Shown here: one piece after another, positions 13,962 to 35,780 of the stretch
Position numbering within the stretch: position 1 is the stretch's first letter
Layout of the letters: each line of letters begins with the position of its first letter
From: Vulcanimicrobiota bacterium
GTDB lineage: Bacteria > Vulcanimicrobiota > Vulcanimicrobiia > Vulcanimicrobiales > Vulcanimicrobiaceae
Length of the DNA: 64,000 nucleotides
Direction: 5' to 3'
Assembly (NCBI GenBank): GCA_963777315.1
Contig: CAVZQC010000006.1
Location: forward strand, 82,555 to 146,554
Notes under the pieces: generated by a model
The model's database searches: none
What the model was told of the DNA's origin: nothing
The model's input: the letters and a program-made list of their open reading frames with translations, nothing else
Position numbers and translations under genes: made by a program

Positions 13962-14381
13962 CTACGCGCTGCCCCACGCCAAACCCAGTGCGGCCGCCGC
14001 GCGGGCAAGGTTCGCGTCTCTGGTCATGAGCGGGAGCTTTCGACGAACGGCAAGTTCCAAGTAGGCCGCGTCGTACGCCGACAACGAAAACCGGGCAGCG
14101 AGATCCAGACCCGTTGCCATCGGCGAACCGGCGATGAAACGATCGACTTCACAATCGAGCTCGTCTAGCGCCTGCAGCGCGGCGGCAACCTGGTCGTTCG
14201 AGAGCCGCTCGCTCCGCTCGGCCATCAGCAGCACGTTCTGGATTTCCCAGCGAAACAACGCGGGCACGACGGCGCCTTGCGCAGCAACGGCCCGCGCCAT
14301 GGTCAATGATGCTTCGTCGCGTTCGTCGGCGAAAAGCCATGAAATGGCCGCCGACGCATCCAGAACGCCGGCAGGCTTAAT
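13962..14381 (-). CDS. VapC-family PIN toxin (putative ATT start)
   Basis: VLDASAAISWLF...RWEIQN...AYDAAYLELA...LMTRD. Paralog of 2806-3207. Confidence 0.88.
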   Translation of the reverse strand: MKPAGVLDASAAISWLFADERDEASLTMARAVAAQGAVVPALFRWEIQNVLLMAERSERLSNDQVAAALQALDELDCEVDRFIAGSPMATGLDLAARFSLSAYDAAYLELAVRRKLPLMTRDANLARAAAALGLAWGSA

Positions 14382-32175: not shown

Positions 32176-33491
32176 GCTGCCTCCGGTGCTGCGGTCCGGG
32201 CGGCCTTCGTCCGAATCGCTACCCCGTACAAACACCCGGCTACCGCGATCGCGTTGCCGATCAACAGAACGTGTATGACGTCCCAAAGCGTACGATGGTA
32301 AAACGCGATCGCCAGCACTTCTCCAAGGACGACCGCACCGAGCATATAGAGGAAGTCGAATTGGTGCAGGCCGATTTTATAGTTGACCAGCAGCGTGAGT
32401 ACGGCCAGCATGCCCATCGCGCAGCCGTACGGAAAAACGAACGGCGCAGCTGCGGCGAAGGCGCCCCCTGCGACGAATCGCAGAACTTCCGCAGGCATGC
32501 AGGCGAATATCGCAAGAGCTCCGCCCAGCAAAAGCAGCGTTACCGATCCGGCCTGGGCCAGCATCGGGAGCGGATTTTCGCCGCTCGTGCTCTTGCCGAC
32601 GGCCTTGGGCAGCACGACGGCCGGGATGAAGGCGGCCAGAAAAAGGACGATCTTTCCGCTGAGATTTACGGCCGCATAGAGCCCTGCTTGCCGCGGCTCG
32701 AAGTAGTGCTTTACGAGCAGGACGTCCATGAAGCTGATGAACGTGAGGAACCCCGTCGCTAGTCCGACGCCCGCCGTGGTTTGCATCAGGCGGCGCAGGT
32801 CGAGCGATAACGGCACGGGGAGAGCCGCGGCGCTGCCGTGCTTGCGCAAGACGGCGCCGATCGTATACGCCAGCGCGCACGCGGTTCCGACGATCCATCC
32901 GAACATTGCGCCGCGAACGCCGAACCCGGCGTACACCAGCGCGATCGCGAGCAGCACTTTGATCGATGCTTCGAGCACCGCCGAAATGCTATAGCGTAGA
33001 AAGTCCTGCTCGCCCTGAAGAATGCCGCGCACGCTGGGCGTCATCAATCCGAGCGCGATAATGCCTAAAGCAAGAACGATGGCGATATCGTTCGGTATGC
33101 GCAGAAACGAAGCTATCTCGGCGCGCAGCAGCAAACCCAAGGCGAGGGCGATGATGCCCGCTATGCCCGTCCATTTGAGCAAAACCTGCGAAAGGCGCCG
33201 CACCCGCCCGGCGTCGCCTGCGGCGTGAAAAACGGCGGAGTACTTGACGACGACCAAGGTGAGCACCGACGTCGGGATCGACAAAATCATCAGGAAGCTC
33301 ACCAGCGACGACAAGGTCGCGAATCCTTCGACTCCGAGCCGGCGGCTGAGCGCAAAATTGAATAAGTAGTTCAGGACGTTTGCGGCCATCGTCGCGCCGA
33401 ACACCAGCGCGCTATGGCGCACGAAGTCGTTACGAAGCGCCCGCTGCACCGGAAGCGCCATGCGGCGCATCGCCAGACCGTTGACCGTCAT
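32172..33491 (-). CDS. Wzx-like polysaccharide flippase
   Basis: About 12 TM segments; NVLNYLFNFALSRRLG and AGLYAA. Confidence 0.8.
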   Translation of the reverse strand: MTVNGLAMRRMALPVQRALRNDFVRHSALVFGATMAANVLNYLFNFALSRRLGVEGFATLSSLVSFLMILSIPTSVLTLVVVKYSAVFHAAGDAGRVRRLSQVLLKWTGIAGIIALALGLLLRAEIASFLRIPNDIAIVLALGIIALGLMTPSVRGILQGEQDFLRYSISAVLEASIKVLLAIALVYAGFGVRGAMFGWIVGTACALAYTIGAVLRKHGSAAALPVPLSLDLRRLMQTTAGVGLATGFLTFISFMDVLLVKHYFEPRQAGLYAAVNLSGKIVLFLAAFIPAVVLPKAVGKSTSGENPLPMLAQAGSVTLLLLGGALAIFACMPAEVLRFVAGGAFAAAAPFVFPYGCAMGMLAVLTLLVNYKIGLHQFDFLYMLGAVVLGEVLAIAFYHRTLWDVIHVLLIGNAIAVAGCLYGVAIRTKAARTAAPEAA

Positions 33492-35107
33492 GCGATCGGT
33501 GCCTCGCGGTTCTCCGGCGGACTGGGCAAATTCCGGGCGAACTTCTGCACGATCAGGTTGAAGGCGATGCCCAATTCCTCGACGTCCAGCAACCGCGCCA
33601 TCGCAACGAACGCCAGCGCTCCAATGGCAATCTGGCCGAACAAGAACCACGCGCGCGAAATGAACGTGTGCGCCGGCTCGACGCCTAGCGCCGCTATCCA
33701 ATGCAGCGTTGCTACCATCACGCCGGAACTGACGGCAATTTTGAGCGTCGAAAGCCCCAGAGTGCGCCAATCGATGCGGTGGACCAGCCGCTGCACCAAA
33801 ACCAGCAGCATGACGGCTTGCATGGATTGGCTGAGCGAATTCGCCAGCAGCAGGCCGCGCGCGCCCAGCGTCGGCAGCCACAGCACCGACAGCAGCACGT
33901 TGACGACGACCGTGAACACCGAGATGGCGACGGTCCAGCTCGTTTCCTTGCAGGCAAACGCGCAGCGCGTCAGCACGACGTTCGCCGCCAGCGCCACCAA
34001 ACCGATCGCCGCATACGGCAGCAGTCCGGCGCATAGATCCGTCGCCGTCGATTTGAACGTTCCGCGCTCGAACAGAGTCTGCACGATCGGATGGGCCAGC
34101 ACCATCAGCGCGCACACGCTGGGAATCGTGATGAAGTTGACCAGCCGCAGGCCCATCGTCACGCTCTTGCCGACCGCCAACCGGTTTTCGCGGGCGAAAT
34201 GGGACGCCAGCAGCGGAAAGATCACCGTCGCGATTGCCGCGGCGAAAATCTGCTGCGGAAAGTTGACCAGCTTGGTGGCATAGTTCATGCCGGCCATGTA
34301 ACCCGGAGTCAGCGTCGAGGCAAAATAGCGATCGAAAAAGATGGCGATTTGCCCCGCAGCCGAGCCCACGATGATCGGTCCGAGCATGTCCCACATGCGG
34401 CGCAAGCCCGGGTGGCGCAGATCCAGGGTGAAACGGTACCGGCGCGTGAACAGCAGCGTGGGCACCTGCACGAGCATCTGCGCGGACAAGCCCAGTGCGG
34501 TGCCGAGAACCAATGCGTAGATGCCGAAGCGATGGTTGAGCGCCACTACGCACGCAATCGTCACCGCGTTCACGGCAATGCCGGTGAGCGACGCGGTGCG
34601 AAAGCGCTGATGCGCGTTGAGCACGGCGCTCAGCACGCCCGCAAGACTGACGGCAATGATGCTGGGCATGAGCCAGCGCGTCATCCGGATCGCGACGGCC
34701 ATTTGCGGGCCGGGAAACCCGTGCGCGATGAAGGGTACGTATACGGGCGCAAAAACGTAGCCCAGCACCGCACAACCCGTCAGGACGATGAGCAGGCCGT
34801 TGATGATCGTGTTTGCCAAACGCCAGCCTTCGTCGTCTTTGCCGCCGGCGATATATTCGGTGAACGTGGGCACCAGCGCGCTCACCAGCGCACCGTTGAA
34901 AACGCCGAAAAGGATCGTCGGAATGACGGCAGCGGCAAGAAACGTGTCCATCTCCCACTGCGTGCCGTAGTAGCGCGCATTGACCACCTCGCGGACGAAA
35001 CCCAGCAGCGTCGATCCCAGCGTAGCGGCAATGACGAACAGCGCCGAGCCTGCCAGCGCGGCGTGGGATTTTTGGTCGGGGGTGACGATGCGCAGCTGCG
35101 GTTTAAT
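33488..35107 (-). CDS. murJ: MurJ/MviN lipid II flippase (putative ATT start)
   Basis: LLGFVRE, ALVPTF, DRYFAS, AIATVIFP and LFERG. Confidence 0.88.
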   Translation of the reverse strand: MKPQLRIVTPDQKSHAALAGSALFVIAATLGSTLLGFVREVVNARYYGTQWEMDTFLAAAVIPTILFGVFNGALVSALVPTFTEYIAGGKDDEGWRLANTIINGLLIVLTGCAVLGYVFAPVYVPFIAHGFPGPQMAVAIRMTRWLMPSIIAVSLAGVLSAVLNAHQRFRTASLTGIAVNAVTIACVVALNHRFGIYALVLGTALGLSAQMLVQVPTLLFTRRYRFTLDLRHPGLRRMWDMLGPIIVGSAAGQIAIFFDRYFASTLTPGYMAGMNYATKLVNFPQQIFAAAIATVIFPLLASHFARENRLAVGKSVTMGLRLVNFITIPSVCALMVLAHPIVQTLFERGTFKSTATDLCAGLLPYAAIGLVALAANVVLTRCAFACKETSWTVAISVFTVVVNVLLSVLWLPTLGARGLLLANSLSQSMQAVMLLVLVQRLVHRIDWRTLGLSTLKIAVSSGVMVATLHWIAALGVEPAHTFISRAWFLFGQIAIGALAFVAMARLLDVEELGIAFNLIVQKFARNLPSPPENREAPIA

Positions 35108-35780
35108 GCGCGCCGTCCTTTCGAATGACGGCCGGAATCGTTCTGATCAATATCCCGATGTCGCCCAGCGGCGACCACGTATCGATGTACTCGTTGTCCA
35201 GGCGCATCCACTCTTCGAACGAAACGCTGCAGCGGCCGTTGATTTGCCACAGGCAGGTAATGCCCGGAATGACCGCGAGGCGCCGCAGCGCGTACGGCGT
35301 GTAATGCTCGACTTCGCTGGGCAGCGGCGGCCGGGGGCCGACGAGCGACATCTCGCCCCGCAGCACGTTGAACAAGTTGGGCAGCTCGTCGATACTGGTT
35401 CGGCGCAGCAGTTTGCCCAGCGGATGCACGCGCGGATCGTTTTTGATCTTGAACACGGGACCGTCCGCTTCGTTCAAGTGCACGAGATCGTCGCGCATTT
35501 CATGCGCGCCTTCCACCATGGTGCGCAGTTTGAACATGCGAAAGTGCCGGCCGCCGCGTCCCACGCGCTGCTGGCAGTAGAACGGCGATCCGCGATCGAC
35601 CAGCACGATCGCAAGCGCCGCCAGCCCGATGACCGGGAGTGCGGCGGCGGTGAGAAGCACGCCGAGTACGAGGTCGGTCAGACGCTTGACGAGGGGCCAG
35701 GCCGCGGGAATATTTCGAGGCGCACTCGTCTGCCCGTATTCGGCCGGCGCGATGCGGCGCCGTTCGTCCGCTAGTTGCAC
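35103..35780 (-). CDS. Priming undecaprenyl-phosphate sugar phosphotransferase
   Basis: KRLTD, KLRTM, DPRV, SIDELPNLFNVLRGEMSLVGPRP and PGITCLWQ. Confidence 0.93.
   Translation of the reverse strand: MQLADERRRIAPAEYGQTSAPRNIPAAWPLVKRLTDLVLGVLLTAAALPVIGLAALAIVLVDRGSPFYCQQRVGRGGRHFRMFKLRTMVEGAHEMRDDLVHLNEADGPVFKIKNDPRVHPLGKLLRRTSIDELPNLFNVLRGEMSLVGPRPPLPSEVEHYTPYALRRLAVIPGITCLWQINGRCSVSFEEWMRLDNEYIDTWSPLGDIGILIRTIPAVIRKDGAH

Follow-up and report, generated by a model that had tools for sequence, protein, structure and literature searches.

The murJ gene of the window (the whole 64,000-nt stretch of Vulcanimicrobiota DNA that was analysed) very probably starts at an ATT codon (35107) formed by the last sense codon and the stop of the gene ahead of it. 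The earlier note had placed this start in a 5-nt ATTAA overlap with the CAT-TAA end of a priming transferase. Both the sequence itself and the alignment of the junction in related genomes agree with that placement, ATT being kept at −5 in 50 of the 62 distinct murJ junctions, down to 51% MurJ identity. As far as sequence comparison can tell, the overlap is real, conserved, and under selection. The features of the locus are collected in Table 1.

Table 1. Features of the transferase-murJ locus (positions are those of the window).
Feature	Position	Strand	Remark
Gene order: deoB, short priming sugar transferase, murJ, 439-aa membrane protein (without family match), glycosyltransferases		−	
Short priming sugar transferase, upstream of murJ	35103..35780	−	Aligns with the C-terminal portion of WbaP/WcaJ-type models; scores below cut-offs
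Transferase stop TAA (5-nt ATTAA overlap)	35103..35105	−	TAA in 32/50 and TAG in 18/50 ATT junctions of the family
Final transferase sense codon, CAT (His); its AT forms the beginning of ATT	35106..35108	−	
ATT, inferred murJ start; its T doubles as the first base of the transferase stop	35105..35107	−	ATT there in 50/62 junctions
AAGGA, Shine-Dalgarno (SD)-like motif 8 nt ahead of ATT, in the Lys-Asp codons of the transferase	35116..35120	−	
In-frame TGA closing the murJ frame, 14th codon upstream of ATT	35147..35149	−	
murJ, 539 aa from ATT	33488..35107	−	TIGR01695 match
First canonical start, GTG, codon 41	34985..34987	−	Used by the public 499-aa gene call
TM1 with LGFVRE	34988..35053	−	Lost if translation starts at the first canonical codon
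N-terminal motif KPQLRIV (family xKPxLRVV), directly after ATT	35084..35104	−	Synonymous variation
Predicted 6-bp hairpin partly covering the SD-like motif	35112..35132	−	z 0.12, within chance

The transferase ends in AAG GAC GGC GCG CAT TAA, and the murJ frame reads ATT AAA CCG from 35107. Two further details of the earlier note hold as well: AAGGA lies 8 nt before ATT (35120-35116), and between the in-frame TGA 14 codons upstream (35149-35147) and ATT there is no ATG, GTG, or TTG. The first canonical codons of the frame are 41 (GTG at 34987) and 53. The junction after murJ in the same operon is an ordinary ATGA overlap, and no promoter-like site was found near the transferase-murJ junction. 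A hairpin hiding the SD-like motif was considered and rejected, its z value being within chance; when the 50 junctions were folded locally, most of the SD segment was paired in 33, and the folding energy was similar to that of the upstream control.

According to the TIGR01695 MurJ model, the protein scores 321.5 bits (cut-off 235.55), the match beginning at residue 19 of the protein (position 3 of the profile); alignments to solved MurJ chains begin at residues 18-27 and extend over about 450 residues. With model and structure matches beginning this early, translation from codon 41 would cost the protein TM1 and, with it, the counterpart of E. coli Arg24. Both alignments thus confirm the proposed loss of the TM1/LGFVRE segment from a start at 34987. 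Arg39 of MurJ aligns to E. coli Arg24, which we take to be important, and Thr33 to Arg18; the latter residue, encoded at 35009-35011 of the minus strand, is a Thr where E. coli has Arg, the Arg24 equivalent being kept. According to PF03023, murJ is the only match found in this 90%-complete genome. The public protein cluster contains only shorter MurJ calls (499 and 524 aa), both of which are truncated. The gene resembles the MurJ/MviN lipid II flippases in scoring above the equivalog cut-off and in keeping the Arg aligned to E. coli Arg24, but differs in that its N-terminus is longer by 17 residues, which include a conserved KPxLRVV. Distant MurJ orthologues begin MATAKRPALV.

The murJ junction counts rest on published genomes alone. 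Out of 76 murJ loci examined, we removed 4 that lacked the 5′ end, 9 that were duplicates, and 1 that had no transferase, which leaves the 62 distinct junctions; named relatives are labelled Vulcanimicrobiota, several of them Vulcanimicrobiaceae or Baltobacteraceae. The relatives are not independent samples, and the counts therefore represent persistence, not probabilities. GTG, ATG, TTG, or CTG occupies the same protein position as ATT in 6 of the 62 junctions. When a spacer is present, the start is canonical in 4 of 4 cases, again at that position (GTG in L014, L019, and L021; ATG in L022), and CAT persists in 3 of these 4. A CTGA overlap occurs in 1 of the 62 and a TTGA overlap also in 1 (L028); the latter is the CATTGA arrangement that the earlier note had set against its own reading, and it appears as a separate state. 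CAC replaces CAT in 4 of the 62, every one with ATG at −14. One junction lacks the N-terminal motif, and another (L062) keeps ATT and the motif, with the frame shifting just after, probably because of an indel.

A canonical codon is absent within −8 to +4 codons in 40 of the 50 ATT junctions, and 20 of the 50 have none at all from the upstream in-frame stop to TM1. ATG at −14 is present in 5 of the 50 and could be the real start there. ATT is followed by Leu in 46/50 (four codons) and Arg in 41/50 (several codons); the conservation of these residues despite synonymous variation implies that they are translated. In a more distant family (15 genomes), an in-frame ATG or GTG precedes TM1 of murJ and no transferase-type C-terminus lies ahead. 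A quick version of the MurJ tree, with three rows in broken frame and L068 omitted, serves to show the spread of ATT only: ATT junctions are found across the family, and other states arise several times. The same junction is also present in four loci titled Verrucomicrobiia, Acidiferrales, or Binatia (L045, L049, L052, and L069), which nest among Vulcanimicrobiota MurJ and whose taxonomic labels may be loose.

Codon usage at the junction points to selection. The last His codon is CAT in 50/50 ATT junctions, compared with at most 74% T-ending codons in 62 other conserved two-codon columns (His, Asn, Asp, Tyr, Phe, or Cys) and with CAT in 23/60 last-codon His genome-wide in G000. The duplex of the SD-like motif with the 16S tail of this genome has an energy of −6.3 kcal/mol. 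Across the family, the mean SD-like signal is −6.9 kcal/mol, versus −4.8 for synonymous shuffles, and it is the stronger of the two in 45 of 50 junctions. The Lys codon in the motif is AAG in 27 cases and AAA in 2, versus 47% AAG in Lys-Asp genome-wide. Avoidance of ATG at −14 was rejected as a further signal, GAT making up 6 of the 33 Asp codons there versus 11% for Asp-Gly genome-wide.

Near-cognate starts recur at other junctions. As for def-fmt, 31 family loci were compared, and 7 of them have ATT at −5 (3 of the 31 are from the unpublished G021, G028, and G029, including one GTT and two GTA). The last residue at these junctions is His or Tyr, and AT is thus kept while the amino acid changes. 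No canonical codon is near in 6 of the 7, and in 4 of these 6 an SD is missing as well (−1.7 kcal/mol). Relatives have ATG, GTG, or CTG at the same place and, twice, GTT at −5; L248 repeats the CAC-for-CAT pattern of the ATG-bearing murJ junctions. In L247, the ATT of fmt lies two codons after an in-frame stop, behind a modest SD, a layout which implies that ATT can serve outside an overlap. Of 30 loci with the pyrG-GT2 junction, 7 show ATTAA and 15 CTGA at the same N-terminus (one ATTAA and one CTGA locus are from the unpublished G019 and G021), and galK has ATT at −5 in 2 of 11 loci, both in genomes of this genus. The SD motif, present for murJ, is absent for most fmt, galK, and GT2 ATT starts. 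In the window, a PIN-domain (VapC-like) gene (13962-14381, minus strand) has no canonical start until codon 26 and an ATT in a TAT-TAA overlap; its relatives have ATTAA likewise in G001 and TAGTG in G016. A gene for an ABC substrate-binding lipoprotein has ATT in this genome and TTG in G001, and the efp-tauE junction (G000:C1:158676, L272) has ATAA here, CTGA in G001 and G002, and a stand-alone CTG in G159.

The same tolerance extends to −4 overlaps at ymdB, for which 68 distinct loci were collected, 61 of them within the family and one from the unpublished G021. A −4 overlap is found in 57 of the 61 family loci (ATA 29, CTA 16, GTA 7, CTG 3, and TTA 2), and 44 of the 57 have no canonical start before the catalytic Asp; where the codon is CTA, a Leu codon a little further downstream could be the start instead. 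A-ending Arg codons make up 27/46 at this overlap versus 36/192 genome-wide. In this genome (G000:C5:231310, L277), the upstream 188-codon frame ends in AKASARR and has no Pfam match. In three other families ymdB starts with ATG. Since the middle T at −4 is supplied by the stop, the need for a middle U is testable by the −5 cases (ATT and GTT) only. ATA and GTA at −4 were also tried as general starts. The G000-G015 swap table is asymmetric, but most of these junctions have TAATG, TAGTG, or another canonical codon close by, and the general claim was rejected while the individual loci stand.

Genome-wide counts were obtained with our own codon-model gene finder (2,492 genes kept). ATT lies at −5 in 22 of 370 open junctions of G000 versus 36 of 933 in the background (one-sided p = 0.07), and in 5 of 20 junctions without a canonical start nearby versus 3.9% in the background (p = 0.001). 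The corresponding values for G015 (1.6 of 2.3 Mb) are 8/202 (p = 0.45) and 2/16 (p = 0.12). Overall, the enrichment of ATT at −5 is weak in G000 and absent in G015. A strict orthologue screen, which recovered prfB and still contains frameshift fragments and artefacts, flagged 19 and 23 of 1,062 pairs, with overlaps accounting for 8 and 12 of these. Among close junctions, those that lack a canonical start number 41/943 in G000, 35/508 in G015, and 1/85 in a GC-matched genome of another class. This outgroup control is one 400-kb sample; by hand estimate, the family rate would predict about 4 such junctions in it, and the lower number is no more than suggestive. The feature concerns roughly 1% of genes, and roughly six to seven of those in G000 have ATT at −5, i.e., a handful of genes and not a general code. 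At such numbers (22/370 vs 36/933, about six to seven genes needing ATT), the overlap is not a frequent device of this lineage. As for the idea of an AUU-based usage in this lineage, comparative evidence upholds the ATT start and its recurrence beyond murJ; restriction to AUU does not stand, because ATT (−5), CTG (−4), ATA/CTA/GTA (−4), and GTT (−5) swap. Coupling, the tuning of expression, and a sensitivity to IF3 are putative.

The initiation machinery appears ordinary. For IF3 residues Y75 and R131 and 16S A790, G1338, and A1339, we assume a role as fidelity sites, and KsgA is presumably linked to fidelity as well. IF3 of this genome keeps R25, Q33, Y75, and R131 and has K at 66, as do many other families of the phylum, and its discrimination residues, to which attention had been drawn as a possible cause, are thus ordinary (R25, Q33, and R66 are taken from the accessible part of PMC9723500). 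The three GC pairs of the initiator tRNA are intact, 16S A790, G1338, A1339, and the anti-SD are identical to those of E. coli, and ksgA and frr are present, above cut-offs. At the top of 16S helix 44 (1410-1416 and 1484-1490; G000:C4), most pairs differ from E. coli (e.g., C1414-G1486 for U-G), with pairing kept. No trans-acting cause was found in IF3, initiator tRNA, the 16S sites, KsgA, or RRF, and relaxed-fidelity machinery (altered IF3, initiator tRNA, KsgA, or RRF) was rejected, the examined parts being ordinary. The infC gene of this genome starts at ATA behind GGAG; across the phylum sample (L194-L223), infC has an ATT, ATA, or ATC start.

Judging from the junctions compared, murJ is probably translated by termination-reinitiation at the near-cognate AUU. 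A ribosome finishing the transferase would restart almost in place: at termination, CAU would occupy the P site and UAA the A site, with AUU lying one base 3′ of the P-site codon. The one-base move would be the shortest that any overlap allows, AUGA needing two and UAAUG five. In that position, AAGGA can pair with the 16S tail and would hold the subunit while fMet-tRNA samples AUU. In-place re-initiation would offset the weak codon. We infer that AUU would be decoded as fMet and that initiation would depend on upstream translation; a low MurJ-to-transferase ratio is a plausible output, although rare starts need not imply low expression (PMC5499595, accessible part). Restarting in this way would also account for ATT starts that lack an SD (fmt and GT2) and for the family's CTGA, ATAG, and ATAA starts. 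According to the part of PMC10666635 that could be consulted, termination-reinitiation works best from −8 to +6 relative to the upstream stop, and the murJ pair sits within this window (−5 in 50/62). Two reports, each as far as accessible, count against coupling: an SD-less aUAA junction in E. coli gave zero downstream translation (PMC9955659), and IF3 restrains re-initiation (PMC2268962). A wider version, tentative and rather doubtful, is that after termination the ribosomes of this family might re-initiate by position, on almost any middle-U codon overlapping the stop (AUU, GUU, CUG, AUA, CUA, or GUA), even without an SD and with ordinary IF3. If that is true, about 1% of the genes, murJ and fmt among them, would be expressed by this route and truncated by gene callers, ymdB being the extreme case.

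Free 30S subunits might instead read the ATT start de novo via AAGGA, as in infC and pcnB, the overlap reflecting compaction and a mutational trap, since NTG at −5 cannot arise without destroying the stop. The murJ SD-like codons are under selection, so free initiation without coupling would be possible. Such a reading also fits the ATA start of infC behind GGAG, the existence of stand-alone CTG, ATC, and ATT starts (obgE, an oppB-like gene, recF, and fmt of L247), and the AUU and AUA starts behind strong SD motifs reported for S. aureus (PMC13009471, accessible part). However, the murJ SD is short, the ATT starts of fmt, galK, and GT2 are mostly SD-less, and the murJ start is canonical in all four spacer junctions. 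Two observations favour coupling, namely the lack of an SD at the ATT starts of fmt and GT2 and the change to a canonical codon whenever murJ gains a spacer, and we consider de novo initiation unlikely. Initiation at some other near-cognate codon (ACG at −14, CTG at codon 5, ATC at codon 7, or CTG at codon 18), with ATT being an Ile codon or incidental, is very unlikely. Such codons do exist at the junction of the window, and ACG occurs at −14 in 29/50, but none is conserved: ten different codons occur at −14 and codon 5 is CTG in 18/50, compared with ATT in 50/50, and it is ATT with which the canonical starts of relatives align.

Still less probable is a prfB-like +1 frameshift at CAU-UAA that would yield a transferase-MurJ fusion. 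The murJ frame is indeed +1, with the stop at the shift site and an SD-like motif upstream, as in prfB-type frameshifting. By established decoding rules, however, tRNA-His cannot re-pair on AUU, and the junction thus lacks a re-pairing codon; the SD is 8 nt away, murJ of relatives has its own separate ATG or GTG at this position, and the same layout follows Tyr and Asn codons between unrelated genes. An assembly error, the true sequence being CATTGA (TTG start) or having lost a base, has a negligible chance of being correct. CATTGA does occur in L028, and indels are found elsewhere in these assemblies (L062 and several genes), but 49 other distinct junctions, including that of a same-genus genome, share the frame and ATT.

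The statements taken from the literature below refer to the accessible parts of the sources. In E. coli, infC and pcnB are the only confirmed AUU starts, and AUU, AUA, AUC, and CUG gave 1-2% of AUG (bioRxiv 10.1101/063800). In S. aureus, cvfC1 (AUU) and ccpN (AUA) lie behind extended SD motifs, AUU giving about 10% of AUG (PMC13009471). The murJ start resembles these four in being a conserved, likely weak near-cognate codon where a canonical one does not fit: no canonical in-frame start keeps the conserved N-terminus, and ATT aligns with the canonical starts of orthologues. In contrast to the four, which are described as SD-led, its ATT is built from the last upstream codon and the stop, it precedes an essential-type membrane flippase, and several unrelated junctions repeat the layout, many of them SD-less. 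Known termination-reinitiation pairs share the stop/start overlap in a conserved gene pair but use −4 (NTGA), −1 (TAATG/TGATG), or −8 with NTG (PMC10666635), whereas murJ has −5 with ATT and the usual forms in few relatives. According to PMC10666635, −5 overlaps are >1,000-fold rarer than −4 and seem completely ruled out except via ATT (ATTAA, ATTAG, or ATTGA) or annotation error; PMC3887535 states that short phase-1 overlaps require the extremely rare ATT. A worked −5 example is absent from the accessible parts of both papers. No published conserved −5 ATT overlap and no start-codon study for the phylum were found in the open literature without supplements; Supplementary Table S4 of PMC10666635 may list pairs.

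AUU starts and coupled overlaps are known, and what is new is the filling of a near-empty overlap class together with a family-wide tolerance of near-cognate starts at stops. The murJ junction represents a deeply conserved case of a class that two surveys deem practically excluded, at the only murJ found in the genome. It comes with natural controls, in that CAT relaxes to CAC once ATG appears and the start becomes canonical once a spacer opens, and with repeats at fmt, galK, GT2, and the PIN gene. Given that the public MurJ calls are truncated, the surveyed rarity of −5 overlaps may partly be a gene-calling artefact. Re-annotation of gene starts in this soil family appears to be needed. These junctions are suited to asking whether re-initiating ribosomes escape the start-codon check, since AUU is a single base away from the P site at termination.

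Several minor observations concern the N-terminus of MurJ and starts away from overlaps. The XB peptide of SspB acts as a ClpX tether. The KPxLRVV motif of MurJ (35084-35104, minus strand) resembles this peptide as described in the accessible part of PMC3983244 and, on that resemblance, might possibly be a protease tether. Stand-alone CTG codons seem to be starts at G000:C2:461962, C4:574029, C1:296773, and C4:140220 (all minus strand), in genes that, by their motifs, look like obgE, tig, an ABC permease, and a hydantoinase. In G015, ATC is the seeming start of a recF-like gene.
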